Source: a virus (lineage: Duplodnaviria > Heunggongvirae > Uroviricota > Caudoviricetes). Taken from it: a DNA stretch of 64,000 nt. Location of the stretch: the IMG/VR virus record IMGVR_UViG_3300033405_000002, positions 179,595 through 243,594 of that record. One strand, given 5' to 3'. Positions 1,038-37,963 of this stretch are shown piece by piece. The translations under genes were made by a program, and so were the position numbers. The number at the start of each line of letters is the position of its first letter. Position 1 is the stretch's first letter. The notes beneath the pieces are model-generated. The model was not told the DNA's origin and did not search any database. It saw nothing but the letters and a program-made list of their open reading frames with translations.

Positions 1038-3428
1038 ATGGATAACGCAACCAAAACCGCGTATGTTTCGCCCCCGAACGGGCAGCTTGACATCACAATC
1101 ATCAGGGATGCGAACCCGCGTGTGACTATTCTGATCGACCTTGGAATTCCCAATTTTACTGTGTTTTCTATGACCTTGCCACTCGCGGAAGGACAGCCGG
1201 GGGCTATGTCCCAGCTTATCGCTGAGGCGGTGCATGTGCTGCTCGACGAAGTGGCTTCGTTCATGATGAGCATGGAGTTTGACGAGAAAGTTATCGTCAA
1301 TATTTACGCTACAGTGCTCGCCACATTCAAGAGCATGAGCACGGAGTCTGACTCAGCCAAAGAGCAGGATGTGTCCGGTCAAGACCCAACAGTCGCTACC
1401 TACGAAGGCACGTTTGAGATTCCGATGGACTTCATCAACGAGACTCAGAAGCGTGTTGTGACCGCCGCTGAGATTACCGAGAAAGAGGCCGAGAGACTCA
1501 TCCGCATGGCTCGTAAGCTGAACGATGATCCAAAGCGCACTGAGCTTTACGAGAAGGCGAAGAGTAGCTGGAGCCGAGAAGAATCCAAAACAGCGCACGA
1601 CTATCAGTGGGCCCCGATTAAGCGTATCTGGGATGCACTTGCAGAATACGTTTCAATCGAACAACCTTTGGGGTTTGACAAAGACGTAGACCAGTTCATC
1701 CGCGAGAAGCTTCAGCACATCGACAAGAGTATGCGTCAAGTGGAGAAAGTGATCTCAACTGGCTCTGATGAATTCTATCCCATGGCGATTGCCATAGAAT
1801 CAACGATCATAAGCGACATGCTTTGGGTAGCCAGAGCGCTTCACTCGCAGGCACACGTGCGCGAGCAATTGGGTGAGAACGCGTGGCGCACCATGCGGCA
1901 GGCTGACTATGAGCTAAAGGACGCGGAGAAAGCTTTGAAGCAAGCTGTCAGGCTGGGTAATGACCCTAAGCGCAGCGAGATTGTTGGAAAAGCCCGCGAG
2001 ACAAAGAGCGAAAAAGATATAAAGGCGGCGCACGAGTACCAGTATCCGCTCATGCAAAAGTTGTACAACACTCTTCTCGATCTTGTGGGCCGTGAACAAG
2101 AGATTGAGTTCGGCGGTGTCGGCAGCGATGAAAAGCAGTACGATTTCATCATTCGTGGCAAGATGAAGTGGTTGGCGTCTGCCTTTGACGACATTGATGA
2201 CATGGTGCAGGGCAAGTTCGTCGCGTTGAAACCATCGGAATATTACAGTGAATACCTGATGTCCACGGAAGAAAACATGCTGAACGAATTGAGCAATGTT
2301 GCTAATGCTCTGAGAGTTCAAGCCCTTCCCACACCTAGTTGGCAGCGAGTTGAAGCCGCGACCAAAATTCAGCGAACTCCCAAGGTCCGTCACGTTGAAC
2401 TGACGTACTCCCCGAAAGAAAAGACTAAACCGAGTGACACCGCACGCGTGATTCGCATGTATCGCAACCGCACGCTGAAGCAACAACCTCGCCCGATGTT
2501 CGTTGTCGTGTACGATCAGGCGGGCCGTCCCGCTGGCGCGGTTCAGGTTGGCCCCGGCAAGAATTTCAAGAATGAACTGTTGCGTCAAATGAAGAAAAAG
2601 GGCAGCATTGATTTTACCGAGCCTGTCAGCTTCGTGAATGAGCAAGAGATGAAGTCGAATCAGCTAAACGGTATCCCGCGTGCCATCAGCGTCGGCGGCA
2701 TGACGTACCAGCCGGAGGCGATGAGTGGCGTGGACATGGCTCTGTACCACGGCCCACAGGACTACATCGTGAAGTTCCCCGATGGTCGCTCAGCTATTTT
2801 CCCCGGACGCCCGACGTTCAGCAAGATGCGCGTGCTCAATTTCCCTGTTCCTCGCAATCGTTTCCGTTGGACGACGATCCCGGAAGATGCTCTCGCAGAG
2901 CCGAAGGACAAGCCGCAAGAGGTCAAGGAAGCCGGGGATGATGATGCTCCACGCAGCGCTGAGCAAGTTAAAAACGATGAAGCACGCAGCATGACCATGC
3001 CCCCTGACGATCACTACAAGCCAAAAGACACGGTTCGCCCGGACATGGTGCATCATCGCAGTGGTGGTGAGAATAAGTTTCGCGGTGTAGAGCAGATTTG
3101 GCTCAAGCCGACGCGCACTTACGACGATCTTGTCCCATTGGATCAATTGAAGAAGCGTCTCGAACGTGACAAACTCAGCGGTCGGCAGATTTTCAGCGGC
3201 TTGATGCTGATCGACAGAATTGGATACTACGGCACCTTCGAGGGCAAGAACGTGCTCGTTATCCCGCAGTATTACATCCGGCGCTACGGTGTGAAGAAGG
3301 ACGATGGCACTTGGCAGGTTTATCACTTGCGGTCTGACGGCCGTGCGCAGAAGATTGGTTTCCGCACGATTACGGACAACGATTTCACCGAAGCAAAGCC
3401 AGCGGAGAGTATTGAACAGCATGGCTGA
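1038..3428 (+). CDS. hypothetical 796-aa protein with an internal duplicated ~50-aa segment
   Basis: long ORF; repeats 'NDDPKRTELYEKAKSSWSREESKTAHDYQW' and 'GNDPKRSEIVGKARETKSEKDIKAAHEYQY'; TAA-TAG-ATG junction with the upstream gene. Confidence 0.6.
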   Translation: MDNATKTAYVSPPNGQLDITIIRDANPRVTILIDLGIPNFTVFSMTLPLAEGQPGAMSQLIAEAVHVLLDEVASFMMSMEFDEKVIVNIYATVLATFKSMSTESDSAKEQDVSGQDPTVATYEGTFEIPMDFINETQKRVVTAAEITEKEAERLIRMARKLNDDPKRTELYEKAKSSWSREESKTAHDYQWAPIKRIWDALAEYVSIEQPLGFDKDVDQFIREKLQHIDKSMRQVEKVISTGSDEFYPMAIAIESTIISDMLWVARALHSQAHVREQLGENAWRTMRQADYELKDAEKALKQAVRLGNDPKRSEIVGKARETKSEKDIKAAHEYQYPLMQKLYNTLLDLVGREQEIEFGGVGSDEKQYDFIIRGKMKWLASAFDDIDDMVQGKFVALKPSEYYSEYLMSTEENMLNELSNVANALRVQALPTPSWQRVEAATKIQRTPKVRHVELTYSPKEKTKPSDTARVIRMYRNRTLKQQPRPMFVVVYDQAGRPAGAVQVGPGKNFKNELLRQMKKKGSIDFTEPVSFVNEQEMKSNQLNGIPRAISVGGMTYQPEAMSGVDMALYHGPQDYIVKFPDGRSAIFPGRPTFSKMRVLNFPVPRNRFRWTTIPEDALAEPKDKPQEVKEAGDDDAPRSAEQVKNDEARSMTMPPDDHYKPKDTVRPDMVHHRSGGENKFRGVEQIWLKPTRTYDDLVPLDQLKKRLERDKLSGRQIFSGLMLIDRIGYYGTFEGKNVLVIPQYYIRRYGVKKDDGTWQVYHLRSDGRAQKIGFRTITDNDFTEAKPAESIEQHG

Positions 3429-7941: not shown

Positions 7942-7984
7942 GTAGAAGAAGATTGATGGTCGTGCGTTTTACAGAAGACCGTAA

Positions 7985-8248
7985 GACAATAGGCACCAGA
8001 CACGTTATCGGACGCGGGTTCGACTCCCGCCGCCTCCACCATAAAGATTTGGTGGTACTCCCACAGCAGGGCTTATGGGGGCGTCACGGCTTCGACGGTG
8101 AATGATGCGAGGATAGCGCCAACGACCCGATGATCGGTTCCCAGCGTTAATAGGGGGCAAAAAACAGTAAACGCCAACGCTCCAAAGGCAATGGCTGCTC
8201 ATGCTTAATGAGCCTGACCCGGTGGGTCAGTTCCTCAACACCACAAAA
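7985..8248 (+). ncRNA. ssrA: tmRNA (ssrA), circularly permuted two-piece type. The acceptor piece ends with ...GGACGCGGGTTCGACTCCCGCCGCCTCCACCA at 8041. The coding piece starts with GGGGGCG at 8077
   Basis: 3' T-arm and acceptor nearly identical to E. coli ssrA; coding-piece 5' GGGGGCGTCACGGCTTCGACGG resembles the tmRNA 5' end; the 5' strand GGGGGCG pairs with the 3' strand CGCCTCC and gives a G3:U70 pair; candidate tag ORF GCC AAC GCT CCA AAG GCA ATG GCT GCT CAT GCT TAA TGA at 8173-8211; helix-5-like hairpin follows. Confidence 0.75.
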
Positions 8249-8250
8249 GA

Positions 8251-8273
8251 ACCCGCGCAAGCGGGCTTTTTTG
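8251..8273 (+). terminator. rho-independent terminator after the tmRNA
   Basis: CCCGCGCAAGCGGGC hairpin followed by a T6 run. Confidence 0.7.
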
Positions 8274-8292
8274 TTTGTGGTAGAATCCTGTT

Positions 8293-8490
8293 ATGAACAC
8301 CACACTTGGTCCTTGGCTGCGCGGCGATTATCTCGACGCGGGCATTCTCGCGCTTCTCATCATCTGGTTTACTCTTGACCGTCTCAATTGCTATTTCTTC
8401 GATCTGTGGCAGGTGTTCCGCCGCTGGCTTTACATCCTAAACATTTTCACTTCGCGCCCGTGGGACGAGAATGGCAGGAGACCGCTGTAG
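8293..8490 (+). CDS. small hydrophobic protein
   Basis: 65-aa ORF; ends with TAG, which overlaps the GTG of the next gene. Confidence 0.4.
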   Translation: MNTTLGPWLRGDYLDAGILALLIIWFTLDRLNCYFFDLWQVFRRWLYILNIFTSRPWDENGRRPL

Positions 8491-11794: not shown

Positions 11795-11954
11795 GCGCGG
11801 GTAGCTCAGTGGGAAGTTGGAAGACGGGTTGATCTCCGTTACGACAGCTTCATGAGCGCCATCGGTGAGACAGGGGGAATGAGAGGGACGCTTCTTTGGA
11901 AGCCTGTCAATAAACGTGAAAGCAAGGGTGGTTCGATTCCATCCCCGCGCACCA
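11795..11954 (+). tRNA. tRNA-like gene, aberrant at 160 nt. It has canonical acceptor 5' and D-stem 5' ends (GCGCGGGTAGCTCAG) and a canonical T-arm, acceptor 3' strand and CCA, but about 90 nt are inserted between them
   Basis: acceptor GCGCGGG pairs with CCCGCGC; T-loop TTCGATT; paralog of the tRNA-like gene at 12432; no canonical D-stem 3' or anticodon arm identified. Confidence 0.35.
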
Positions 11955-11955
11955 A

Positions 11956-12028
11956 GGGCGGTTAGCTCAGTGAAAGAGCGCTCGGCTTGTCCGAGAGGTC
12001 GGGGGTTCAAGTCCTTCACCGCCCACCA
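11956..12028 (+). tRNA. tRNA-like gene with a shortened anticodon arm (5-bp stem CTCGG/CCGAG closed by a 5-nt loop CTTGT)
   Basis: acceptor GGGCGGT/ACCGCCC; D-arm GCTC...GAGC; T-loop TTCAAGT; encoded CCA. Confidence 0.4.
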
Positions 12029-12033
12029 AGTTA

Positions 12034-12155
12034 TGCAGGATAAAGGCTCAGGCGAAGATAGGTCGCACTTATCAGACCAAAAGCTGAAGTTGGCAACACG
12101 GCGCTTGCCCTCATCGTGAGATGAGAAACCGGGTTCGACTCCCGGCCCTGCACCA
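12034..12155 (+). tRNA. tRNA-like gene, long at about 120 nt. It has a T-arm and acceptor with a hairpin variable arm (CTCATCGTGAGATGAG), but no canonical D-arm or anticodon arm
   Basis: T-arm CCGGG-TTCGACT-CCCGG; 5' TGCAGGA pairs with 3' CCCTGCA; candidate anticodon hairpin has an 8-nt loop. Confidence 0.3.
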
Positions 12156-12289
12156 AATGTAAAACGGGCACACGCTGTTAGGGAACCGCGCCGTAAATGT
12201 TCTGTTAGAAAGAGCAGGACACTAGGCAGCGGACAGCAGCTTGCGGAGCCAAGTACGGCAAACTGAAAACGCGGGAAATACCATGGTGA

Positions 12290-12344
12290 GTACCGCGCAA
12301 GTAATCCGCATTCGCCGGAGGTTCGATTCCTCAGGTGCCCACCA
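12290..12344 (+). tRNA. tRNA 3'-half-like element (T-arm, acceptor 3' strand and CCA); no convincing 5' half found
   Basis: GGAGG-TTCGATT-CCTCA then GGTGCCC-A-CCA. Confidence 0.25.
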
Positions 12345-12354
12345 AGTTTGTTGC

Positions 12355-12430
12355 GCCTGATTAGCTCAGCGCAGAGCACCGGACTTTTAGTCCGGGGGTC
12401 GGCTGGTTCAACTCCGGTCATCAGGCTCCA
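12355..12430 (+). tRNA. tRNA-Lys(UUU)
   Basis: acceptor GCCTGAT/ATCAGGC; anticodon arm CCGGA-CTTTTAG-TCCGG; T-loop TTCAACT; CCA encoded. Confidence 0.6.
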
Positions 12431-12431
12431 T

Positions 12432-12505
12432 ACGCGGGTAGCTCAGAGAAAGAGCATCCGGCGCAAGCTGGAAGGTCGGTGGTTTAATTCCATCCCCGCG
12501 TGCCA
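12432..12505 (+). tRNA. tRNA-like gene in which the anticodon arm is replaced by a 6-bp hairpin capped by a GCAA (GNRA) tetraloop
   Basis: acceptor ACGCGGG/CCCGCGT; D-arm GCTC-AGAGAAA-GAGC; T-loop TTTAATT; TCCGGC-GCAA-GCTGGA. Confidence 0.4.
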
Positions 12506-12506
12506 C

Positions 12507-12541
12507 GGGGCTGTGGCGTTAGTAGCGTCGCAGCCCCACCA
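12507..12541 (+). other. acceptor-stem minihelix-like element: a 7-bp stem, a 17-nt loop, then A-CCA
   Basis: GGGGCTG...CAGCCCC-A-CCA immediately after the tRNA-like gene. Confidence 0.3.
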
Positions 12542-12607
12542 AGTTCATGAGTTTGTTGGAGTTGTATCGGTAGCCAAAGATGGTTGGTTTTCCGTATACT
12601 TGGGTAT

Positions 12608-12684
12608 GCGCCCGTAACGCTTAGCGGCTAAAGCTGTGGTCTCTAAAACCGTGATCGGGGGTTCGAGTCCCTCCGGGCGCACCA
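12608..12684 (+). tRNA. tRNA with anticodon CUA (amber suppressor type). It has two extra nt between the acceptor and the D-stem
   Basis: acceptor GCGCCCG/CGGGCGC; anticodon arm GTGGT-CTCTAAA-ACCGT with U33, CUA at 12643-12645 and A37; T-loop TTCGAGT; CCA encoded. Confidence 0.5.
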
Positions 12685-12713
12685 ACCTTCAGTATTAACC
12701 CCCAGCACAAGAT

Positions 12714-12817
12714 GCCCCGGTAGCTCAATAGCAGAGCAGCGGTCTCTAAAACCGTCCTCACTAGAGCAGCGGATGTTAATCCGTTGGTTACGGGTTCAAG
12801 TCCCGTCCGGGGTTCCA
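12714..12817 (+). tRNA. tRNA with anticodon CUA (amber suppressor type) and an about 34-nt variable arm
   Basis: canonical D-arm GCTC-AATAGCA-GAGC; anticodon arm GCGGT-CTCTAAA-ACCGT with CUA at 12746-12748; variable-arm hairpin CGGAT-GTTA-ATCCG; T-loop TTCAAGT; acceptor GCCCCGG/CCGGGGT. Confidence 0.55.
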
Positions 12818-12818
12818 C

Positions 12819-12893
12819 ACTCCTGTAGCTCAACGTGGCTAGAGCGCGGTCCCTAAAATCGCAGATGCGAGTTCGATGCTCGCCGGGAGTGCC
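12819..12893 (+). tRNA. tRNA with anticodon CUA (amber suppressor type, C33 variant)
   Basis: acceptor ACTCCTG/CGGGAGT; D-arm GCTC-AACGTGGCTA-GAGC; anticodon arm GCGGT-CCCTAAA-ATCGC with CUA at 12853-12855; T-arm GCGAG-TTCGATG-CTCGC; CCA. Confidence 0.5.
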
Positions 12894-12897
12894 AACG

Positions 12898-12926
12898 ATT
12901 GACAAATTCACTAGACGCGGTATTAT
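12898..12926 (+). promoter_or_regulatory. sigma70-type promoter TTGACAAATT...TATTAT, related to the TGGACAAATT family
   Basis: gaTTGACAaattcactagacgcggTATTATgtg, right after the last tRNA. Confidence 0.5.
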
Positions 12927-13034
12927 GTGAATGGCGATAGTACCTCGCAATAGAGAACCGTCAACATCCGATACGTAGAAGCTTCATGAAGTCGTTCGGT
13001 GAGAATCAGGGCTTGCGCGTGGTTGAGCTATGTG

Positions 13035-13058
13035 GGGGTGTGCAGCGCTGCACACCCC
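13035..13058 (+). promoter_or_regulatory. perfect 24-bp palindrome (candidate operator) between the promoter and the RBS
   Basis: GGGGTGTGCAGC|GCTGCACACCCC; no trailing T-run, so it is not a terminator. Confidence 0.45.
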
Positions 13059-13077
13059 TGCGCTATCTAGGATCGAA

Positions 13078-13569
13078 ATGAAACTCGCACGGATCGAACA
13101 TTGGCGTTGCGGTGAACCTATCGGTTGGAAGAACGGCAGCGGCTCCACGTATGTGTGGGTGCCCGATTCAATGACCGAAGAAGAGTTCAGCACGTTCTGT
13201 GAGAACGCCCGCCAATCTTACCTCCTCGTGGAAGAGGGGTTCAAAAAGAAAGCTCCGGTCTATCCACCGGGATACGGCCCGTCCATCGAGCATTACCCTG
13301 ACACCATGACGGTCGCTGAGATCAAGGCCGATCACGCAAAGAAAACCGCTGCATACAAAACGTACACAGATGAGTGCAATCGGGCGCGGAAGCCGTATTC
13401 GTGGCATCTGCAATTAGTCAGTGGTGGTACAATCAGACTGTTCTATGATGTGAAGCCAGAGCTTGAGTACGAGCTTTCATGGGGCCATAGACACGGCACC
13501 ACGATTGAGCACAGCGGCACTGACTTCGGCGATTATCCACCAAAAACAGAAGACGAGGACGGACTGTAA
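13078..13569 (+). CDS. hypothetical protein
   Basis: AGGA RBS; 163 aa. Confidence 0.5.
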   Translation: MKLARIEHWRCGEPIGWKNGSGSTYVWVPDSMTEEEFSTFCENARQSYLLVEEGFKKKAPVYPPGYGPSIEHYPDTMTVAEIKADHAKKTAAYKTYTDECNRARKPYSWHLQLVSGGTIRLFYDVKPELEYELSWGHRHGTTIEHSGTDFGDYPPKTEDEDGL

Positions 13570-14403: not shown

Positions 14404-15323
14404 ATGTCACAGCGGGACGCTTAAATGAGACTTTACGCCGTCATTTTGACGGGTATGGTCTCCCTTTCTCTTTTTCAACCAACGTAATCCCCGAAAACGA
14501 TCCAACCACTCTCTTCATTAGCGCGGGGATGCAACCACTCAAACCAAGGTTTCAGACGCCGGACGGCACAGGCTACGGCAATGTGCAGTATTGTGTGCGC
14601 ACGAACGACATTGACGAAGTGGGCGATGGCACGCATCTGACTTTCTTCCAGATGATCGGCAGCTTCGGCTTTGGCACCTACAACTACGAGAGCCACGTGC
14701 AGATGTGGTCGGACATCATGACCGACCTGAAGATTCCTATTGACCACGTGGACGTTCACCCAGACTCCCAGCTAGATTATCTGTGGCTTCAGCGCGGCTA
14801 CGGCGTGCGCATGAACCCGGAGTGTGTTTGGTCGGACGGCAATGTCGGCGGTTATTGCTGCGAACTATTCACGCCGGACGGACTCGAAGTAGGCAATCTG
14901 GTGAACCCATTGCAGCACTCCGTGGACGTAGGATTCGGCTACGAACGAATCTTGCAGATCATGGAGGGCAAATCTCGCGTGGATGAGACGAGCCTTTTCA
15001 ACCAGTTTCTCGATCCGATTTCTCGCGACCATTTTCGCACGCTCAACGTGTTTCATGAGCAAGGGATTGTTCCGGGGAACAAAGGGCGGAATTACGTCTG
15101 CCGCCGCCTGATTCGCCGCTTTATCCGGTTGAATCCAAACGGTTTAGAGTGTTCGTTCATGGATTGGATGGATGATGAACGAATCCGCATGGAGAATTCG
15201 ATCCGCGACGGGCGCAAGCATTGGCGCAGGAATAAACGCAAACTCCCACCAATACCGAACTCGTTCTATTGGGAGACTTTCGGCATCATGCCCGATGAGA
15301 TGGTATTAGTGAAAGAGGAATAG
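14404..15323 (+). CDS. alanyl-tRNA synthetase catalytic-domain fragment (mini-AlaRS). It is split into an SD-ATG leader MSQRDA-TAA (14404-14424) and a -1 frame (14385-15323); it needs a -1 frameshift, or it is a pseudogene or carries a sequencing indel
   Basis: frame-0 region 'ENDPTTLFISAGM...QYCVR...THLTFFQMIGSFGFGTYNYESH...VDVGFGYERILQI...GNKGRNYVCRRLIRRFIRL' matches the E. coli AlaRS motifs HNDPTLLFTNAGM, QRCVR, HHTFFEMLGNFSFGDYFK, IDTGMGLERI and GRGYVLRRIIRRA; AlaRS-like homology extends 48 codons upstream of the first ATG (14529) with no start codon in that frame; the AAGGAGGA RBS serves ATG 14404 in the +1 frame; ends with TAG. Confidence 0.6.
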
Positions 15324-16460: not shown

Positions 16461-16491
16461 GAGCCGCCAGAAATGGCGGCTTTTTTATTTT
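16461..16491 (+). terminator. rho-independent terminator, a candidate attenuator, between the leader ORF and tRNA array 2
   Basis: GCCGCC-AGAAAT-GGCGGC followed by TTTTTTATTTT. Confidence 0.65.
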
Positions 16492-16565
16492 GGCGAGTAG
16501 CTCAGTGGGAGAGCACAGTCCTGATAAGACTGGGGTCGAGAGTTCAATCCTCTCCTCGCCAACCA
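16491..16565 (+). tRNA. tRNA-Ile(GAU)
   Basis: canonical cloverleaf; anticodon loop CTGATAA; CCA encoded. Confidence 0.7.
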
Positions 16566-16583
16566 AGTTTTGAGATGTGAGAT

Positions 16584-16657
16584 GCGCCCTTCGTCTAACG
16601 GCAAGGCCCACGCCCGATTAGCGTGAGATCGCGGTTCGAATCCGTGAGGGCGTACCA
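16584..16657 (+). tRNA. tRNA with anticodon GAU (Ile-like) and an atypical loop (C33, U37)
   Basis: anticodon arm CACGC-CCGATTA-GCGTG; T-loop TTCGAAT; G1:U72. Confidence 0.45.
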
Positions 16658-16663
16658 AATTTT

Positions 16664-16867
16664 ATGAAGAGTGACTGGCGAAAACGATACGAAGACGCGG
16701 AGAGTGCCTTCCATAAGCTGAAGAGCATGACGAAGCGCGTTCCCGCCAGCGCATGGACGCCGGAGTATCGCGAACTCGCGAACGCGATCCACACGTTAGG
16801 AAGAGAATCTTTCTACGTGGAATCAGATGATTTTAAGCCTGAAGATCGAGAAGATTGGGAAGGCTAG
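16664..16867 (+). CDS. small hypothetical protein between tRNAs
   Basis: 67 aa; ends with TAG. Confidence 0.4.
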   Translation: MKSDWRKRYEDAESAFHKLKSMTKRVPASAWTPEYRELANAIHTLGRESFYVESDDFKPEDREDWEG

Positions 16868-16871
16868 TTAG

Positions 16872-16954
16872 GCCGATGTGGCTCAGCGGCGACAGCAGCG
16901 GTTCCGTAAACCGCCACACAAACATCGGGGGTTCGAGTCCCTCCATCGGCTCCA
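16872..16954 (+). tRNA. tRNA-Thr(CGU) with a 3-bp D-stem and a 12-nt unpaired variable region (C33)
   Basis: anticodon arm GCGGT-TCCGTAA-ACCGC; paralog of 17830-17911. Confidence 0.5.
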
Positions 16955-16960
16955 AGTTTT

Positions 16961-17035
16961 GCCACGGTAACACAACGGTGGTGTACTCCCTTGGTAAGGG
17001 AGAGGGTGTGGGTTCGATTCCCACCCGTGGCTCCA
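16961..17035 (+). tRNA. tRNA-Thr(GGU)
   Basis: fully canonical cloverleaf; anticodon loop TTGGTAA. Confidence 0.75.
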
Positions 17036-17039
17036 AGTT

Positions 17040-17375
17040 ATGTTTGGGCGAACTACAGATTGCGGCGGCAAGCACGAGTACGAGAAAACAACTTGTCAGC
17101 GCATGGTTGAATGGGAGTTGGTTGACCATGAAACCGGAATCGTGCTGGCGCGTAAGTTCGATCCGTGCCCGCGTCACCAGCCGGGACAGGCAGCGGTCAA
17201 TCTGGTAGATGAGCGCACGCTTCAGGATCAAGCGGTAAAGTTTCTGGTTGCGCACCCAGAGTTGTTCCCGCGCTGTGAGAAGTGCTGGGCGTATTTGACA
17301 CCGAAGAAAGCGCATGTTTGTGCGAAGGCGTCCAAGTGGGAACGGAAAGAGCCGCGTAAAAACGCGAAGCATTGA
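17040..17375 (+). CDS. small zinc-binding-like protein
   Basis: 111 aa with several CxxC or CxxH pairs. Confidence 0.45.
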   Translation: MFGRTTDCGGKHEYEKTTCQRMVEWELVDHETGIVLARKFDPCPRHQPGQAAVNLVDERTLQDQAVKFLVAHPELFPRCEKCWAYLTPKKAHVCAKASKWERKEPRKNAKH

Positions 17376-17388
17376 GTATTTGATTGCT

Positions 17389-17556
17389 ATGAAATGTCAA
17401 GAACAACACGAGCATGGCGGGTGCGGTTTGGAACTGACGTTCCCGCAGCGGTATCCATTGGATGTTACGGTTCCCGGCCCAACGCAACAGTTGGGTGAAG
17501 GTGGACAGCCGGGGACGAGCGAAGATCAATATCCAATGAACGGAACTTGCTGCTAA
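17389..17556 (+). CDS. small hypothetical protein
   Basis: MKCQEQHEHGGCG... Confidence 0.3.
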   Translation: MKCQEQHEHGGCGLELTFPQRYPLDVTVPGPTQQLGEGGQPGTSEDQYPMNGTCC

Positions 17557-17569
17557 CAGACCCCCTTGT

Positions 17570-17824
17570 ATGGGGGCACTCAGCGACGAGCAGACCGACC
17601 TTCTCTACCAGAACCAGAAGGTACTGGACGCTCGTAGAGCCTTCCTCAAAAAGCTTGCGGAAGGAATGAGACGCGGCGATCTGGAGATGATCGCGGAAGG
17701 AAACGCTCTCAAGAAAGTGTACGAAACGCTCTTTGCGGAGCATCTGAAGTGGGTGATTGAAAACCCACCGGAGCCAAAGGCGAAACCGATGGTGTCATTC
17801 AACGGCTTCGCACGCAGAGCGTAA
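17570..17824 (+). CDS. small hypothetical protein
   Basis: 84 aa. Confidence 0.45.
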   Translation: MGALSDEQTDLLYQNQKVLDARRAFLKKLAEGMRRGDLEMIAEGNALKKVYETLFAEHLKWVIENPPEPKAKPMVSFNGFARRA

Positions 17825-17829
17825 ATTAG

Positions 17830-17911
17830 GCCAACGTGGCACAGCGGCGACTGCAACGGTTTTGTAAACCGTCATCCCACATCGGAGGTTCGAGTCCTCT
17901 CGTTGGCTCCA
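17830..17911 (+). tRNA. tRNA-Thr(UGU) with a long unpaired variable region
   Basis: anticodon arm ACGGT-TTTGTAA-ACCGT; T-loop TTCGAGT. Confidence 0.55.
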
Positions 17912-17924
17912 AGTTTAGATTCAT

Positions 17925-17999
17925 TGCCCTGTCGTTTAATGGCTAGGACGGTTGCCTTTGAAGCAACTTATCGGGGTTCGAGTCCCTGCGGGGCAGCCA
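17925..17999 (+). tRNA. tRNA-Gln(UUG)
   Basis: anticodon arm GTTGC-CTTTGAA-GCAAC; T-loop TTCGAGT. Confidence 0.6.
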
Positions 18000-18003
18000 A
18001 GAT

Positions 18004-18089
18004 TGGGAGATGGTGGAAAAGTGTAAACACGCCAGTCTTTGAAACTGGTGCCGATAGGCTTGCAGGTTCGAGTCCTGCTCTCCCAGCCA
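18004..18089 (+). tRNA. tRNA-Gln(UUG), second copy, with a 12-nt variable region
   Basis: anticodon arm CCAGT-CTTTGAA-ACTGG; T-arm GCAGG-TTCGAGT-CCTGC. Confidence 0.55.
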
Positions 18090-21559: not shown

Positions 21560-22609
21560 ATGAAAAATATTCTATTGATTTCTCTGACTTTACTGATCGC
21601 CTCGGTAGCATTTGCCGCCGACGATCAAGATGCTTACTGCAAGTACGTGCTTGAGCAAGGCGCGGCGCAACGTGACTTTCTCCGCACACCTGAAGCCACG
21701 TCCGGCATCGTGCAGCCAAACACCGGGCTGCCAGCGCAGCTTTTGTGGGGGGCTTCTAGCAGCTACTCTAGTTTCCGCAAGGCGAAGCTGACAATGGAAG
21801 TCGCAAAGAAGAACTGCGAGCTTTACGTTTCGACGGTGACCGCGCAACAACAACTTCTCTACGCACTACCGTCATTAGAGAAAGCCGCGCTCCTAAATCG
21901 TGTGAGTTTGATTCAACAAGCGAACAGCCAGCTTGACGCGCTTATCGCGGAGAACACGAAGGCGATAGAGGCGCAGGAATCAACTGTGCCCACGCTTTAT
22001 GCTCTGCACGCGGCGAAAGTGAAATTCTTCAAAGATCAAGGCGATACGTCCTTGAAAGCTGCCGCATTGTACACGCCTGAGTCCAGTCCTAAGCCTGTAA
22101 AGCAATTGGTCGTAGAGAAGCAGGGGGACGAAGTGGCGGACCAGAAAGCTATTGACCATTTGGCGCGTCAGCAGAATTGGGACTTGACATTTGAGGGCGG
22201 GATGCGACATCAGATTAACCAATTTTTCGCGAACGGCGTTGGCCCTTACGTCACCTTTCAAGCGAGCTATAGTCTCGCGAACAAAGCCATCAACCGCCAT
22301 CTGGATTCTTCCGCAGATGCCTACGCACAATGGAAGTTGACCGAGCAAGGCGACGTTGTACAAAACGCCGCGATTTTGAAACAGCAGATCGTCAACAGTA
22401 TCTCCGTGGAAGAGTCTCAACTGAAGTCTCTACAAAGCGAAGAGCAAGAAATTGACTCGAACTTGAAGATTGTCAATGATGTAGCAACATCGGCGGCGAT
22501 CAACTTCAAAAACCAATTGCTCGCTGACCGTCTAGGGTTGCGCGTAGAGATTGGGGATGTATCGTTCAGACTTACACAACTCCGGCAGTATCTCGCCGAC
22601 AATTTCTAG
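21560..22609 (+). CDS. secreted coiled-coil protein, a possible outer-membrane or periplasmic export component
   Basis: signal peptide MKNILLISLTLLIASVAFA; ends with TAG; in frame with the next small gene. Confidence 0.45.
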   Translation: MKNILLISLTLLIASVAFAADDQDAYCKYVLEQGAAQRDFLRTPEATSGIVQPNTGLPAQLLWGASSSYSSFRKAKLTMEVAKKNCELYVSTVTAQQQLLYALPSLEKAALLNRVSLIQQANSQLDALIAENTKAIEAQESTVPTLYALHAAKVKFFKDQGDTSLKAAALYTPESSPKPVKQLVVEKQGDEVADQKAIDHLARQQNWDLTFEGGMRHQINQFFANGVGPYVTFQASYSLANKAINRHLDSSADAYAQWKLTEQGDVVQNAAILKQQIVNSISVEESQLKSLQSEEQEIDSNLKIVNDVATSAAINFKNQLLADRLGLRVEIGDVSFRLTQLRQYLADNF

Positions 22610-22618
22610 GAGACTGAC

Positions 22619-22810
22619 ATGGAAGCAGCAACGGCAACATCACAAGAGGGATTTATTGACGACCAACGCGAGACCTGCAAGTGCGGAAAAGAGATTCGCT
22701 GGGACGCGGACAAAAAGAAGTGGTTTCACATTCACAACTTCATGACGTTCTGCTCCGGCAGGGCCCTTGACGACAACCACAACGATTGTGAACGTGGTCA
22801 ACCCGCGTAG
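22619..22810 (+). CDS. small Cys/His protein
   Basis: 63 aa. Confidence 0.35.
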   Translation: MEAATATSQEGFIDDQRETCKCGKEIRWDADKKKWFHIHNFMTFCSGRALDDNHNDCERGQPA

Positions 22811-22927
22811 CACTTCAGTGCTACGATGCAAAATAAAAAGAAGCACCTTCCGAACAGAAGGAATCATAGAGATGTCAAGAACCTTTCGGTTCTGGTTTAG
22901 ATTACTAGCGGCAACCCCGCTTCAAGG

Positions 22928-24484
22928 ATGGTTATGAAACTTCGTCTATTCTCCGTTGCTGCACTGATTCTGTTTGCTACCAGCGCGGCGTTCGCGTGGC
23001 CCTCGTGTTCGGGCAACTGGGTTCAGGTTCCAGCGGGGACCAAACAGGGAACGGTTGGCTCCGGCAACGTCGGAGCTATCGTCACTGAGAACGGTCAGAC
23101 GTTCGAATGTGAATCCCCATCGAACCCCTCCGGTGGTGGAAATACCAACACCAATAACAATTCAGCCAGTTCAACATCCTCGTCCAGTTCCAACTCTGGT
23201 GCAACATCAGGCTCATCGTCCGGCGCTTCTGCCACTGGCGGCAATTCATCCGCCACGGGTGGAAACTCGTCATCGACCGCTAACGGCGGTGCAGGTGGGT
23301 CGGTTTCAGGCTCCGGCAATTCATCTTCTTCGTCCGGCGTGAACAACTCCGGCAACTCGTCCAACACCAATAACAACACCGCTCAGGGCGGCAAAGGTGG
23401 TCAGGGTGGTCAAGGCGGCACTGGTGTGGGCGTAGGCGTCGGAATCGGCGGCGGCGCATCCAACAACGGCAACGGGAACGGCAATGGCAACGGGTCGAAC
23501 AACACGACCACAGCCAACGGCGGAACCTCGAATGCCAACGGCAACGGCAGCAATAACACCACGGTAGCGAAGGGTGGGTCAGCGAACGGCAATGGCTCGA
23601 ACAACACCACCAACTCTACCTCTTCTGCGACAGGCAACGGCAGCAATAACACCACCGCCGCAAACTCCAATCAGTCACAGTCCAGCACTTCGTCAGCGAA
23701 CAACTCTGGCGGTAACTCCAGCAACTCGTATTCGAGCACGAGCAACACGACCGTGGAAGCTCCGAAGATTCCGGTCAACACCGCGTATGCTCCAACCACC
23801 ATCCCGACGTCGCCCTGTCTCAAGGGCTACAGTGGCGGCGGTCAGGGTGCGAACTTCGGTTTCGCTTTCGGCGGCAGCAAGGTTGATGAGAACTGCGCTG
23901 CGCTGGAAACGGCACGTGCCTTCGACTCCATGAACGAACGTCTGGCGGCTTGCAAGGTCAAGATCAACACCAAGTACGCCAAGAAAGCTGGCGTCACGCT
24001 GGAAGACTGTATGCAGGTTGAGATGGTTCCCGCGCCTCCGACCGCTCCGGTGGTTGAGAAGCACGAAGAACGGCAGCAGCCCATCGTGGTTGTAGTCCCG
24101 ACACCGCAAGCTGCGGCTCCAGTGCCAGCGATTGCTCCGCAGCCCCCGGCTCCGGCAATCGTTTGGACGAGCGTTTGCACGTTCGCCAGCAAGACGGTCT
24201 GCACGGCGGAAGATAAGACCTTTACTCCTGATCCGGCCCGTCCGACATCAGTCTGTAAGATCATGATTGACTCCGCAGTCCGTGCGTACAAGCAAAGCCC
24301 GAACAGCCGCTTCGTGCTCGTTGGCAACCGCAACCGGGAAGAGAGCGATCTGCTCCCGACTGCCCGCGCCAACAACGTTCGCAAGCAGCTTGAAGCCGCT
24401 GGTGTACCAGCCAGCGCTATCAACGTTCAGGTTGGTTCAGGAACGACCCGCACGGTAGAGATCGTCCTGATTCAGGCTCAATAA
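22928..24484 (+). CDS. secreted low-complexity protein rich in Ser, Gly, Asn and Thr, with an OmpA-like C-terminal domain
   Basis: signal peptide; about 200-aa SGN repeat region; C-terminus 'FVLVGNRNREESDLLPTARANNVRKQLEAAGVPA' resembles the OmpA-C peptidoglycan-binding motif. Confidence 0.55.
   Translation: MVMKLRLFSVAALILFATSAAFAWPSCSGNWVQVPAGTKQGTVGSGNVGAIVTENGQTFECESPSNPSGGGNTNTNNNSASSTSSSSSNSGATSGSSSGASATGGNSSATGGNSSSTANGGAGGSVSGSGNSSSSSGVNNSGNSSNTNNNTAQGGKGGQGGQGGTGVGVGVGIGGGASNNGNGNGNGNGSNNTTTANGGTSNANGNGSNNTTVAKGGSANGNGSNNTTNSTSSATGNGSNNTTAANSNQSQSSTSSANNSGGNSSNSYSSTSNTTVEAPKIPVNTAYAPTTIPTSPCLKGYSGGGQGANFGFAFGGSKVDENCAALETARAFDSMNERLAACKVKINTKYAKKAGVTLEDCMQVEMVPAPPTAPVVEKHEERQQPIVVVVPTPQAAAPVPAIAPQPPAPAIVWTSVCTFASKTVCTAEDKTFTPDPARPTSVCKIMIDSAVRAYKQSPNSRFVLVGNRNREESDLLPTARANNVRKQLEAAGVPASAINVQVGSGTTRTVEIVLIQAQ
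23130..23760 (+). repeat. low-complexity coding repeat (GGC/AAC/AGC-rich) inside the 22928 gene
   Basis: generates spurious ORFs in the other frames. Confidence 0.6.
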
Positions 24485-28545: not shown

Positions 28546-28688
28546 AAACTTTTGACGAAGCTCTGGACGAGGCGTTCAACAACATCGTCATCGACCGCCT
28601 CGATAGGGTCCGTCAATCGGTGGAGCGTTTTACTGAGCGTGCTAAGAAGCTGCGCGAAGAAGAACAGAAAGACGGGGAGAAGAAATGA
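28542..28688 (+). CDS. small charged protein (GTG start)
   Basis: GTGA overlap with the upstream gene. Confidence 0.3.
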   Translation: MKTFDEALDEAFNNIVIDRLDRVRQSVERFTERAKKLREEEQKDGEKK

Positions 28689-29632
28689 AGCCGAGCTACG
28701 GCGTCATCGTCGGGCGATTCCAAGTCAATGACTTGCACGAGGGGCACATGGAGTTGTTTCGCCAAGTGCGCTCCCGGCACAGCGGCGTCATCGTTTTTGT
28801 CGGCGTTGCTCCGGCTGGTTTGACCAAAGACAACCCATTGGATTTCCCTACGCGCCGCGCCATGATCCAAGCCAAGTTCCCTGACTTCACTGTTTTACCT
28901 TTGCAGGACTGCAAGACCGACGAGCAATGGAGCGAACAGCTTGACACCGCCATTGGCTCCGTTGTAAATTTCGGCGATGTGACGCTCTACGGCGGGCGTG
29001 ACTCGTTCGTGCCACATTACACCGGAAAATTCAAGCCTGTTGAATTAGCCCTCCCCACCGAAACTCAGAAAGTCAGCGGCACCGACATCCGTAACGAATA
29101 CTCGAACAAGGTGATTGAATCGCCGGAGTTCCGCGCCGGGATGATCTATGCCGCCGCGCACCTTTGGCCCGTCCTGTTACCGACCGTGGACATCGCCATT
29201 TTCAACAGCGATTACACTGAAGTCCTGCTGGGGCGCAAACCCGGCGAAAAGCAGTTCCGTTTCATCGGCGGTCACGCGGAGAAGAAGCACGGCACCTATG
29301 AGAAGGGCGCTCGCTGCGAAGTGCTGGAAGAGGCTGGGATTGATCCGAATGAGATGCAATACATCGGCTCCGCTGTGATCCCTGACTGGCGCTATGCCAC
29401 GTCTGATCGCGGCGTGATGACAGCGTTCTTCGCAACTACCACCATGAGCCAAGCTGCTACGGCTGGTGACGACATCGAAGAAGTGAAGTGGTTCAAGGTC
29501 TCGCAACTTACTGCATCCGATCTCGTGGACACGCATCAAATCCTGTATAGGATGTTGGCGGATTACCGAAACAAGATCGTGTTCACCAACATCAACAAGG
29601 AGAAGACAAATGCCGGAACCGCTAAAGCTTAA
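28685..29632 (+). CDS. bifunctional NMN adenylyltransferase (NadM-like) and Nudix hydrolase
   Basis: GRFQV..LHEGH nucleotidyltransferase motif; Nudix box GGHAEKKHGTYEKGARCEVLEEAGI. Confidence 0.75.
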   Translation: MKPSYGVIVGRFQVNDLHEGHMELFRQVRSRHSGVIVFVGVAPAGLTKDNPLDFPTRRAMIQAKFPDFTVLPLQDCKTDEQWSEQLDTAIGSVVNFGDVTLYGGRDSFVPHYTGKFKPVELALPTETQKVSGTDIRNEYSNKVIESPEFRAGMIYAAAHLWPVLLPTVDIAIFNSDYTEVLLGRKPGEKQFRFIGGHAEKKHGTYEKGARCEVLEEAGIDPNEMQYIGSAVIPDWRYATSDRGVMTAFFATTTMSQAATAGDDIEEVKWFKVSQLTASDLVDTHQILYRMLADYRNKIVFTNINKEKTNAGTAKA

Positions 29633-31067
29633 CCCAATCTGGAACACCGACAGCTACAAGCTGGGGCACTGGGTGCAGTATCCACCTGACACTGAGTACA
29701 TTGAGTCCCACCTGATGTCGCGGGGCGGCTTTTTCAAGCAGACTTTGTTCCAAGGGCTTCAAGGCATCCTGAAGGCGAACTACACCGGAGTTGTGTTCAC
29801 GAAAGCTGATGTGGACGAAGCCCGTTTCCTCTCTGCCTTGCATTTCGGCTCCGACAAGGTGTTCAACTACGCTGGCTGGACCCGCTTGCTTGAAAAGCAT
29901 GGCGGACGCCTGCCTCTCAAGATTCGCGCTCCCAAGGAAGGGACGCTTGTTCAGACCAAGAACGCCCTGATGACCATCGTGAATACTGATCCAGAGTTTC
30001 CGTGGTTGACCAACTGGGCCGAGACGATCCTGCTTCAGGTTTGGTATCCAATCACAGTTGGCACCTTGTCGTTCAAGATTCGTCAAGTCATTGGCATGGA
30101 CCTCGTGCGCACAGGTGATCCGGCAGGTCTGGATTTCAAGCTGCACGATTTCGGTTTCCGTGGCGTATCATCGAAAGAGACGGCTGCTATCGGCGGCGCT
30201 TCGCACCTATTCAACTTCCACGGTACTGACACGCTTGCTGCGATTCAGTACATTCGCCAGTATTACGGCGGCAAAGACCCCGGCAACCTGATGCCCGGTT
30301 TCTCGATCCCGGCAATGGAACACTCGACTGTCACTTCATGGGGCAAGCCCGGTGAAGCAGCCGCTTACCGGAACATGCTGCTGAAGAACCCCGATGGTCT
30401 GGCGGCGTGCGTGGTGGACTCCTATGACACCCACAACGCCGTGGAGAACATCTTCGGCGGCGATCTGCGGGACATGGTGCTTCGGCGCAACGGCACTGTT
30501 GTGCTGCGCCCGGACTCCGGCGATCCGGTCGTGGTGATCGAAGACATCTTCAACTCGGTCGCCGACAAGTTCGGCTACACGACTAACACGAAAGGTTACA
30601 AGGTTCTGCCCTCGCAGGTTCGCGTCATCCAAGGCGACGGCGTGAACTTCCAAAACATCCAACGCATCAACTCGTCTTTGACTCGCGGCACGTGGTCAAT
30701 GGACAACTGGGGCTACGGCATGGGCGGTGCGCTGCTTCAGCAGTTGAATCGTGACACTCAGCGTTTCGCGATCAAGTGCAACGCGATCTCTCGCTCTGGC
30801 GTTTGGACCCCGGTCTTCAAAGACCCAAAGACTGATCCGAGCAAGGCATCAATCGGTGGTCATGGTCTGTGTCTTGTGGATCGCGCAGTGGATCACTCCG
30901 GCGACTACACCACGGTTGTAAGCGGCGATTCGGACGCTTATGGCAACGAACTGGATGTCGTACTGTTGGACGGTGAATTGAAACGTGACCAGCTTTATCA
31001 GGATGTTTGGGACACGGCCCGTAAGTACGACACTTACGTTGAAGAAGCGCAAGAAGCATACGCATGA
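29610..31067 (+). CDS. nadV: nicotinamide phosphoribosyltransferase (NadV/NAMPT)
   Basis: N-terminus 'NTDSYKLGHW'; 'GFRGVSS'; 485 aa. Confidence 0.85.
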   Translation: MPEPLKLNPIWNTDSYKLGHWVQYPPDTEYIESHLMSRGGFFKQTLFQGLQGILKANYTGVVFTKADVDEARFLSALHFGSDKVFNYAGWTRLLEKHGGRLPLKIRAPKEGTLVQTKNALMTIVNTDPEFPWLTNWAETILLQVWYPITVGTLSFKIRQVIGMDLVRTGDPAGLDFKLHDFGFRGVSSKETAAIGGASHLFNFHGTDTLAAIQYIRQYYGGKDPGNLMPGFSIPAMEHSTVTSWGKPGEAAAYRNMLLKNPDGLAACVVDSYDTHNAVENIFGGDLRDMVLRRNGTVVLRPDSGDPVVVIEDIFNSVADKFGYTTNTKGYKVLPSQVRVIQGDGVNFQNIQRINSSLTRGTWSMDNWGYGMGGALLQQLNRDTQRFAIKCNAISRSGVWTPVFKDPKTDPSKASIGGHGLCLVDRAVDHSGDYTTVVSGDSDAYGNELDVVLLDGELKRDQLYQDVWDTARKYDTYVEEAQEAYA

Positions 31068-37652: not shown

Positions 37653-37963
37653 TGCCCACATTGAAGCTGACTTTTACACCGTCCGAACTCACGGATGACG
37701 CGAGAGCTTATCTCGAACAACGTTTCATGCAAGAAGATTACGAGAGCATGTGGCTTAGCATCGACAGTCTTCTTGAGGAACTCGCTGATGATTGGATGGA
37801 AGGTTTAACCATAGACGCAAGCACCATCAATTGGGAGAAAACTTCGCTGAAAGACATCCCGAAGGCTTGGTGGAAACGTATGGCTTTCTCTCCAAAAATG
37901 GAGAGAGCAATCAAGGCGTTCTGGAAGAAACACCCCACGGGGGAGATCGAGTGGAGTTGGTAG
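37652..37963 (+). CDS. hypothetical protein
   Basis: 103 aa. Confidence 0.45.
   Translation: MPTLKLTFTPSELTDDARAYLEQRFMQEDYESMWLSIDSLLEELADDWMEGLTIDASTINWEKTSLKDIPKAWWKRMAFSPKMERAIKAFWKKHPTGEIEWSW

Follow-up and report, generated by a model that had tools for sequence, protein, structure and literature searches.

The stretch of DNA considered here, hereafter the window, comprises 64,000 nucleotides (nt) of an uncultivated jumbo myovirus of the Caudoviricetes (positions 179,595 to 243,594 of the IMG/VR record IMGVR_UViG_3300033405_000002), whose genes lie on the + strand. Its RNA features are a transfer-messenger RNA (tmRNA, 7949-8299), a first array of tRNA and tRNA-like genes (array 1, 11795-12894) and a second one (array 2, 16491-18089), with a gene for a protein resembling a small alanyl-tRNA synthetase (mini-AlaRS, 14529-15323) placed between the arrays. 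Array 1, the subject of this report, is made up of ten elements, all on the + strand. The only ordinary decoders that ARAGORN and Rfam call among them are four, namely a canonical tRNA-Lys(UUU) (element E, 12355-12430) and three amber-suppressor tRNA-CUA genes (H, 12608-12684; I, 12714-12817; J, 12819-12894). The remaining six, labelled A, B, C, D, F and G, are non-decoders of tRNA-like appearance.

In all of the elements from A to G, 6-7 paired acceptor positions are followed by N73-CCA, which is in fact encoded in all 17 elements of the two arrays (ten in array 1 and seven in array 2), usually with AGUU coming next. A T arm, consisting of a stem of 5 base pairs (bp) and the 7-nt loop UUCRANY, is present in A, B, C, D and F and absent from G; the corresponding motif GGTTCRANTCC occurs 24 times in the window, against 8.2 expected, and its exact matches cluster in both arrays. 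A regular D arm is missing from C, D and G, and none of A, B, C, D and F has the standard anticodon arm, i.e. a 5-bp stem and a 7-nt loop with U33 and a purine at position 37. The original prediction, according to which such molecules could be processed and CCA-tailed without decoding, agrees well with the loss of normal decoding and with the retention of all that excision and handling in the manner of tRNAs require, namely the acceptor stem and N73-CCA in each, the T arm in most, and their place on the tRNA strand and in the tRNA operon.

Two of the six, B and F, are cloverleafs without a usable anticodon. In element B (11956-12028; Rfam tRNA, 56.5 bits) the anticodon arm reads CUCGG-CUUGU-CCGAG, the 5-bp stem and 5-nt loop that had been predicted for it, and U33, R37 and G18G19 are all lacking. 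ARAGORN reads B as tRNA-Gln(UUG), and the 7-nt loop of this assignment is obtained only by leaving the G32-C38 pair open, with C33 and U37 as a result. In element F (12432-12505; Rfam tRNA, 46.1 bits), which tRNA-Lys(UUU) precedes by 1 nt, the arm consists of a helix of 6 bp that ends in a GNRA tetraloop, GCAA, again as first proposed; the minimum-energy fold is a clean cloverleaf with just this stem and cap (z = -3.0), and the ARAGORN output is 'tRNA-??? (ca)'. The termini of F form an A1-U72 acceptor pair, followed by the discriminator G73 and CCA. The D arms of B and F have a 4-bp stem and 7-nt loops without GG (AGUGAAA and AGAGAAA, respectively).

The other four elements depart further from a cloverleaf. 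Element A (11795-11954, 160 nt), recognised by its fold and by its repeat of the T arm and acceptor, is a paralog of F with an insertion of about 95 nt: its acceptor (GCGCGGG/CCCGCGC-A-CCA) and T arm (GGUGG-UUCGAUU-CCAUC) are nearly identical to those of F. The 5' strand of its D stem, GCUCA, pairs with UGAGC at 11853-11857, so that the insertion, which had been noticed in the original prediction, fills the D loop (about 40 nt) and also replaces the anticodon arm. Its core (11840-11880) is homologous to a leader downstream of the array, termed S below: it repeats the core of S in diverged form and includes the palindrome variant that S has in the window. Element C (12034-12155, 122 nt; fold z = -2.6) joins an acceptor stem, the hairpin GAUAGG-UCGCA-CUUAUC, a GUGA-capped hairpin just 5' of the T arm, the T arm CCGGG-UUCGACU-CCCGG and ACCA. 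Its homologs in two related phages (L061, 6731-6852, and L120, 6604-6728) share with it the covarying hairpin GAURGG-YCGCR-CYYAYC and the GNRA-capped hairpin preceding the T arm; in other words, a real tRNA-like RNA lies here, as was claimed, while its conserved feature is this hairpin and not the 8-nt loop that had been put forward.

Element D (12166-12344, 179 nt) is a structured RNA with the tRNA-like terminus GGGCAC...GGAGG-UUCGAUU-CCUCA-GGUGCCC-ACCA. What had been taken for half a tRNA at 12290-12344 is simply the 3' end of this longer RNA, whose 5' GGGCAC (12166-12171) pairs with the GUGCCC-ACCA strand, and which is conserved in L061 and in a more distant relative, L153. The consensus of the three members has 35 pairs, six of them with compensatory changes; pair 3:70 is G-C, G-U and A-U across the three copies, with G3-U70 only in the L061 copy. 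Finally, element G (12507-12541) is, as had been described, a bare acceptor minihelix ending in ACCA: a 14-bp hairpin (GGGGCUG...CAGCCCC) without a T loop, folding at -26.7 kcal/mol (z = -5.5), which 0 of 200 shuffles match. Its acceptor is the same as that of the C-like RNA in L120, no direct ortholog of it was found, and small ACCA- or GCCA-tailed hairpin RNAs analogous to it occur in L153 (5621-5672 and 5833-5900).

ARAGORN was applied to the elements with an allowed intron length of 0-200 nt and also at lowered thresholds, and Rfam at E<=10, and neither program resolved them as intron-containing or type-II tRNAs with 7-nt anticodon loops. In its intron mode ARAGORN calls A alone, as tRNA-Pro(UGG) with a 65-nt intron, a forced model in which the D stem is almost unpaired and the variable region is 22 nt long and unstructured. 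At a lowered threshold, part of D is returned as a poor, sub-threshold 'tRNA-Gly + 45-nt intron'; C and G receive no call in any mode, and B and F remain non-canonical. Rfam finds no intron family in the elements, the sole intron-type match being a 16.6-bit group II fragment outside them, and assigns no family to A, C, D or G. The option of intron-containing tRNAs, entertained in the original prediction, is thereby refuted: there is no intron family, the insertions are merely 65-95 nt long, the model of A is forced and F leaves no room for an anticodon. A class II reading of A, C and D fails on the missing normal anticodon arm, the class II layout being true only of suppressor I. Three further identities were considered and rejected. 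The best YrlA hits (RF02553; 33.6, 22.3 and 18.7 bits against a gathering threshold of 69) bridge neighbouring tRNAs; Rfam tmRNA scores reach 8-12 bits on T arms alone, the 3:70 pair being G-C or A-U; and the calls of ARAGORN -m with its threshold lowered are all of permuted tmRNAs that span several elements, which is implausible. The weak YrlA, Tymo_tRNA-like, Plastid-ycf2 and tmRNA hits all arise from tRNA-like pieces only.

Relatives of the phage were collected through a conserved neighbour protein of 163 amino acids (aa) encoded downstream of array 1 (L001, L061-L068 and L118-L121) and through the mini-AlaRS (L122-L125). Their common layout is tmRNA, array 1, leader S, the 163-aa gene, in most cases the mini-AlaRS, and array 2, and their array 1 has two or three tRNA-CUA genes downstream of a GTATACT promoter box. 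B- and F-type genes are found in 10/10 phages with a visible array 1, C in L061 and L120, and D in L061 and L153. We tabulated 18 members of the B/F family and aligned 17 of them, from 10 phages, with the anticodon arm cut out. In the acceptor, D and T stems of this alignment every one of the pair cells (271/271) is a standard pair, and seven pairs show compensatory changes, in 25 cells; 0 of 500 shuffles reach this level of pairing, and sliding the partners lowers it to 42-61%. That the top half is wholly paired while the neighbouring 163-aa protein is just 43-65% identical across the relatives indicates strong purifying selection on this part of the RNA.

The anticodon arms of the same genes have no common sequence, yet they are always closed helices. 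The caps are GCAA (three times), GUGA, GAAA and UUCG, and the remaining genes end in loops of 5 or 8 nt or in unusual ones of 7 nt. In particular, the F arm of L061 has 7 bp, an internal loop and then GGCGG-GCAA-CCGCC, that of L064 has the GUGA cap, and the members of the F2 subfamily have 6-bp stems with the 7-nt loops UUUUGAU, UACGAUG or UUCGAUG. Among B arms, the 5-nt loop of the window has as its counterparts CGG-GCAA-CCG in L123 and the 8-nt loops UGCAAUAC and UGAAAUAC, containing GCAA or GAAA, in L120 and L121. The F1 subfamily is divided, as its orthologs carry a Lys-like loop, UAUUUAA with A33, in L123 and L124, versus a capped hairpin in L120 (CCGGC-GAAA-GCCGG) and L121 (CGGC-UUCG-GCCG). 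Orthologs, in other words, alternate between quasi-decoding loops and sealed helices. The discriminator varies by subfamily (A, G and U), and the U73 of F1 is the same as in the phage tRNA-Lys.

A tRNA-Lys gene followed directly by a tRNA-like gene is seen in the window, in L061 and in L153. The array 1 of L153 is richer than that of the window and runs in the order F (7 bp + GCAA), D, Lys, a second GCAA-capped cloverleaf, a 52-nt RNA with an acceptor helix and two GNRA hairpins ending in ACCA, a 147-nt tRNA-like RNA and a 13-bp hairpin-GCCA, with two suppressors lying further downstream. We also note that tRNA-Lys(UUU)-like genes with A33 or G33 instead of the universal U33 occur in L123 (1654-1733), L124 (4026-4101) and L153 (5453-5527), the last of these being the one with G33, and that two of them have abnormal T loops as well (UUCGAAACA and UGAGAAU). 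Position 33 adjoins the PrrC cleavage site. Another element of array 1 in relatives, missing from the window, is a conserved stretch of about 75-120 nt, whose fold is GUACGC...GCGUAC followed by ACCA (ACAAG in L123), directly upstream of tRNA-CUA (L001, 4414-4539; L062, 1075-1193; L122, 765-887; L123, 1450-1542).

The design recurs well beyond these relatives. Scanning IMG/VR with the 14-mer CGCGGGTAGCTCAG retrieved F-type genes in unrelated contigs of 90-416 kb, with the caps UCCG, CUUG, CUCG or GCAA. In some of these genes the D loop bears added hairpins with UUCG or GAAA caps; one has a 130-nt D-loop insertion and another is devoid of any anticodon arm. A second scan of IMG/VR used the pattern GAGC...GCAA...AGGTC plus a T arm, a gene being counted as anticodon-less if the GCAA was closed by at least 5 contiguous pairs. 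It gave 36 hits, 21 of them anticodon-less, on at least 7 different acceptor stems and on contigs of up to 415 kb; the other 15 are mostly ordinary tRNAs with a GCA anticodon and serve as an internal control. All tRNA-likes examined outside the window group lie within phage tRNA arrays, with or without suppressors. Scans with the DNA words GAGCTATGTGGGGG, CATTCGCCGGAGGTTCGA and GCGAAGATAGGTCGC returned chance hits only.

Covariation among relatives and recurrence in unrelated phages thus show that these genes are under selection. The acceptor/T/D top half is kept by selection, while the anticodon loop is sealed by a tetraloop, shortened, lengthened or swapped for structured modules; conserved structure, recurrence and loss of the anticodon loop are direct observations. 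Given what is established about decoding, a loop that has been sealed, resized or replaced would make codon reading impossible. We are highly confident that A, B, C, D and F, and probably also G, derive from tRNAs and are small RNAs of the phage tRNA operon that do not decode. Five of the six features first noted are in the sequence as they were described and exceed chance; the case for function is weaker for A and G. Judging from what is known of tRNA maturation, these RNAs would be transcribed together with the tRNAs of the array and would be cut out by RNase P and 3'-end enzymes, as tRNAs are, an expectation that follows from the acceptor helix and encoded N73-CCA in each and the T arm in most. 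Their paired, CCA-tailed ends would confer stability.

While the structural finding is well supported, it is functionally open to several readings. The one to which we incline, without calling it probable, is that the tRNA-likes act as uncleavable tRNA mimics against tRNA-targeting immunity. Phage tRNAs have been found to act in counter-defence, evading nucleases by mutations of the anticodon loop (PMC10264068, PMC11555353, PMC11464382), and tRNA-Lys(UUU) is a common target of PrrC, PARIS and bacterial Schlafen proteins, all of which cleave in the anticodon arm (PMC13056530). For toxSAS (PMC11559606), MenT (PMC10435456) and Cas12a3 (PMC12851939), the site of action is instead the CCA end or the acceptor stem. 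The mimics would engage those host factors for which the tRNA body or the CCA end is the recognition site. Candidate targets would be enzymes that cut the anticodon arm (PrrC, PARIS AriB, Schlafen, PtuAB) or that modify or cut the CCA end (toxSAS, MenT/AbiEii, Cas12a3). Such RNAs would present no cleavable loop and would leave decoding undisturbed even at high expression, and they may act alongside those tRNAs of the array that decode and serve in anti-defence, i.e. tRNA-Lys(UUU) and the suppressors. The position of F beside tRNA-Lys(UUU), the A33/G33 variants of tRNA-Lys and the full sealing of the loop could then be seen as successive steps toward a mimic of the tRNA body alone.

That said, several points weigh against such mimicry. 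Catalytic toxins are hard to titrate by a decoy. Without G18G19 in the D loops of B and F, the tRNA elbow may be altered. The capped helix ranges from 5 to more than 12 bp, so that the position of the cap is not fixed, which favours an arm that is 'just closed' over one with a specific docking role. The bodies of C, D, A and G are unlike tRNA, orthologs of A and G are missing from the relatives examined, and A was found in this phage alone. Finally, no tRNA with the acceptor and D-arm start of F is present in 185,579 species representative genomes (bacterial and archaeal) by a strict exact-match test, and the sole cellular match to its acceptor stem is a coincidence within a coding region. It would follow from this absence, as far as so strict a test allows, that F is no copy of a known cellular tRNA.

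A broader proposal, which we regard as possible and rather doubtful, is that a widespread undescribed class of anticodon-less mimics, cloverleafs or acceptor helices with an encoded CCA and a GNRA or UNCG tetraloop sealing the anticodon loop, exists in large phages, having arisen repeatedly from different tRNAs, and inhibits or sponges tRNA-directed immunity or a host synthetase. For example, G and other acceptor helices with G3-C70 might occupy AlaRS without being charged, the phage relying meanwhile on a mini-AlaRS of its own. In the literature, phage tRNA genes with a tetraloop-capped helix in place of the anticodon loop, or RNAs of the C and D families, were not found described, within a coverage that is incomplete and leaves out most subscription journals.

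Phage tRNA genes have been an enigma for 50 years and are now seen as counter-defence tools. To our knowledge, all known counter-defence phage tRNAs work by decoding, whereas here tRNA-derived genes have given up decoding and are nonetheless under strong structural selection, with the tetraloop solution recurring in numerous large phages on many acceptor stems. Mimics or inhibitors of tRNA-targeting immunity would amount to a new, RNA-based anti-defence strategy, an RNA counterpart of protein anti-defence factors, and would offer a handle on the part of the tRNA that is recognised. Annotation pipelines tag such genes as 'tRNA-???', 'undetermined' or 'pseudo' and then ignore them. What is more, the family is small and friendly to synthetic biology, which makes direct trials against cloned defence systems feasible in E. 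coli.

Among the alternatives to mimicry, the one that survives best, unlikely as we judge it overall, is that acceptor stem, CCA and, in those that have one, T arm form a cassette for maturation and stability, with a 5' end made by RNase P and a paired CCA 3' end open to repair, a scaffold or punctuation mark in which the embedded modules are the functional part. Candidate modules would be found in A (its copy of the S core), in C (its hairpin) and in D (its body), besides the GNRA hairpins. C and D are indeed conserved, structured RNAs of 120-180 nt that are tRNA-like only in their terminus and T arm, and the rnaC RNA of T4 (139 nt) likewise has a T arm, CCGGG-UUCGAAU-CCCGG, and paired termini, with no known role (PMC3014915). 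The leader core with its palindrome variant inside A, the several ACCA- or GCCA-tailed, GNRA-capped hairpin RNAs of L153, and the D-loop hairpin insertions in L136, L154, L182 and L216 all point the same way, and for the bodies of C, D, A and G this explanation fits better than mimicry does. It fits C, D and A better than F and B, as F and many of its analogs carry no cargo, their arm being a bare helix of 5-10 bp with a tetraloop, and yet their whole top half including the D arm is conserved, although a D arm and a conserved variable loop would be superfluous in pure processing signals. If they are stability scaffolds, these RNAs would be a natural precedent for tRNA-scaffold RNA expression and may explain T4 RNAC and RNAD.

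It is improbable, in our estimate, that we are dealing with decaying, functionless pseudogenes, i.e. duplicated phage tRNAs with indels in the anticodon loop. Indels do distinguish the anticodon arms of close relatives, and by appearance the B arm of the window is the suppressor arm of L064, CUCGG-CUCUAGU-CCGAG, minus 2 nt; the lack of orthologs of A and G would also fit, and G looks as though the C-like RNA of L120 had collapsed. Decay would hardly keep all top-half stems by compensatory changes where even the neighbouring protein has diverged so far, and the altered arms are non-random, being perfect helices with the most stable classes of tetraloop. The design has, moreover, arisen repeatedly on different acceptor stems, and G folds far beyond its shuffles.

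More improbable still is that the tRNA-likes are aminoacylatable, non-ribosomal carriers, charged independently of an anticodon, for instance by the mini-AlaRS encoded 2 kb downstream, or else that they block synthetases or EF-Tu. AlaRS is anticodon-independent. Since, in addition, a giant-virus mini-AlaRS charges acceptor microhelices (PMC10036535), a link between the phage enzyme and anticodon-less RNAs is attractive at first. The protein (264 aa, + strand) has a trimmed catalytic core and a trimmed acceptor-recognition region: it aligns to the AlaRS catalytic core with the alanine-pocket and acceptor-contact motifs kept (of the R69, W170, N212, D235, G237 type), retains parts of the acceptor-binding helices, and has neither an editing nor a C-Ala domain, with ~45 residues missing at its start. 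L001, L120 and L121 have the protein as well, and its large, well-conserved family counts more than 190 metagenomic homologs (48-77% identity, on jumbo-phage contigs of up to 859 kb); G carries the canonical tmRNA-type acceptor strand GGGGCUG with A73-CCA. None of A-G, however, has G3:U70, the 3:70 pair being G-C in A, B, D, F and G and A-U in C, with A73 in A, B, C, D and G. For this reason charging by the neighbouring enzyme is unlikely, and the idea of a synthetase sponge, raised in the original prediction, is weakened as far as AlaRS is concerned. The discriminator is, moreover, inconstant among subfamilies, and L118 and L119 have no mini-AlaRS within the region seen.

The simpler reading is that the mini-AlaRS serves the tmRNA and tRNA-Ala, both of which offer G3:U70. 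The phage tmRNA (+ strand) is of the two-piece, permuted type, with the tag ANAPKAMAAHA and a G3:U70 acceptor, and is conserved in L001, L061 and L120. In L125, a distant phage, the mini-AlaRS gene has a tRNA gene for alanine on either side, tRNA-Ala(GGC) and tRNA-Ala(UGC), and the two share G3:U70 and A73. The enzyme of the window is far smaller than the Tupanvirus class of mini-AlaRS.

Lastly, it is highly improbable that the elements are genuine decoders, whether intron-containing, class II or with unusual 5-, 8- or 9-nt loops for frameshift or quadruplet reading, since ARAGORN's calls for B and A, its report of the 8-nt loops in the L120 and L121 B orthologs as 4-base anticodons, and the 7-nt loops of the F2 members on their 6-bp stems are outweighed by the tetraloop of F and at least 20 analogs, which leaves zero unpaired triplets, by the C33, the U37 and the closing G32-C38 pair of B, by B-type 'anticodons' (UUG versus CGA) and loop lengths that differ between orthologs, by an intron model of A nearly devoid of D-stem pairing without any intron family hit, and by the failure of every ARAGORN mode to resolve C or D.

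As for the surroundings of the tRNA-likes, a promoter-like site on the + strand (TAGCCA-18-TATACT, 12571-12600) lies just upstream of the first suppressor tRNA, and the GTATACT box at this position is kept in all relatives. The suppressor tRNA-CUA genes, called by ARAGORN and Rfam, are conserved in every relative. Suppressor I combines a normal CUCUAAA anticodon loop with an 8-bp variable-region hairpin, AGCGGAU-GUUA-AUCCGUU (fold z = -4.8), which is conserved in L001, L062, L121, L122, L123 and L124. We considered TAG recoding as a context for the array and rejected it for the window: ORFs, i.e. open reading frames, on the + strand cover 92% of it under the standard code, and about 20 of the 89 end in TAG. 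The mini-AlaRS gene itself ends in TAG and the tail sheath gene has no in-frame TAG, while a frame of 974 codons with three in-frame TAGs (21560-24484), a candidate for recoding, proved to be three separate genes, two of them with signal peptides. The suppressors are nonetheless kept, although the window uses the standard code and read-through at the phage's own TAG stops would have to be avoided.

Downstream of the suppressors lies S, a leader or small RNA (12899-13077, + strand) with a near-consensus promoter-like start (TTGACA-16-TATTAT) and a terminal hairpin. It contains a perfect 10-nt palindrome, CTTCATGAAG (12982-12991), which covaries as a whole between phages (CTTCATGAAG, CTCACGTGAG, CTCGCGCGAG); such a pattern would fit RNA that dimerises, or an operator bound by a protein, better than it fits a hairpin. 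The 163-aa protein that follows (13078-13566) has a confident AlphaFold model (pLDDT 85.4), with no fold match (best Foldseek E = 2.4) and no Pfam or NCBIfam match, and the protein directly downstream of array 1 is also encoded on a 332-kb contig. L119 is without array 1 upstream of the 163-aa gene, and directly downstream of that gene it has one for a Tpt1/KptA RNA 2'-phosphotransferase (2486-3028; Pfam E = 3.6e-46), found only in this relative. In other relatives the position of A-G is taken by a protein of about 190 aa, with no Pfam or PDB match.

Array 2 holds two tRNA-Ile, three tRNA-Thr and two tRNA-Gln genes. Its tRNA-Thr(CGU), tRNA-Thr(UGU) and one tRNA-Gln(UUG) reach 82-86 nt via long variable regions (16872-16954, 17830-17911 and 18004-18089), with normal anticodon loops and equal lengths in L119, L121 and L124. 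The proteins of the window include a 1291-aa tail sheath, a UvrD helicase and a PP2C phosphatase. There are also an NMN-adenylyltransferase/NUDIX protein with NAMPT, i.e. an NAD+ reconstitution pair (28685-31067), and a 5-hmdU DNA kinase for thymidine hypermodification (37792-38823); these are functions of the counter-defence type, in keeping with the mimic reading of the tRNA-likes. RNA-repair and Ro60/TROVE genes are absent among the ~40 window proteins scanned. Among GenBank phages there is no close relative, only short tRNA matches.

RNAs that resemble tRNAs are already known as a kind, as tmRNA, YrlA, T4 RNAC and RNAD, and tRNA-Other, and it is instructive to compare the present elements with each of them and with laboratory constructs. 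In engineered tRNA scaffolds the anticodon arm is swapped for a hairpin, and the tRNA body is still processed and stabilised in cells. A 12-bp acceptor/T helix with ACCA suffices for RNase P and CCA enzymes and, with G3:U70, also for AlaRS. Those scaffolds and minihelices are laboratory constructs, whereas the elements described here are natural and without G3:U70. The tRNA-like domain of tmRNA shares with them an acceptor stem, a T arm, CCA and the lack of an anticodon, and RNase P takes part in its processing; GGGGCUG, the strand that opens the acceptor of G, is also the common tmRNA 5' end. Unlike tmRNA, the elements have no G3:U70, no tag reading frame and no pseudoknots, and F and B keep the full D arm that tmRNA lacks.

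The 'tRNA-Other' of Bacillus cereus is likewise tRNA-derived and non-translating, and is thought to be a tRNA-like structural element (PMC3399842). It differs in being chromosomal, single-copy and part of a longer regulatory transcript, in keeping its anticodon loop, and in having neither an array nor a tetraloop cap. YrlA (RF02553) contains a tRNA-like module and is carried by some jumbo phages together with Ro60 (PMC4201824, PMC7824862), but its acceptor end is closed, and its open ends form the Ro-binding stem.

Closer in setting are RNAC (species 1) and RNAD (species 2) of T4, which, as in the window, are encoded among the tRNA genes of a phage and on their strand, have lengths of 119-139 nt and are of unknown function (PMC3014915). 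The layout of rnaC, with a bona fide T arm beside paired termini and extra hairpins between, is like that of C and D. In this sense C (122 nt) and D (179 nt) fit the RNAC/RNAD type, by architecture only, the comparison being one of layout. The T4 RNAs differ in that CCA is not encoded, and no sequence similarity has been established. T4 is also without a tetraloop-capped cloverleaf of the F/B type, whereas the phage of the window has six tRNA-like RNAs, of several families.

A further comparison is with the anti-defence tRNAs of phages, i.e. those of the T5 type, tRNA-Lys against PARIS and tRNA-Tyr against retron/Septu PtuAB, which resemble the genes of the window in being array genes with deviant anticodon loops (PMC10264068, PMC11464382, PMC11555353). 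F sits beside tRNA-Lys(UUU), and the Lys-like loops with A33 or G33 in the relatives recall such tRNAs. Those tRNAs, however, decode and replace the cleaved tRNAs of the host, which F, B and their analogs, having no anticodon, cannot do. Any anti-defence role of F and B must therefore be that of a mimic or an inhibitor.

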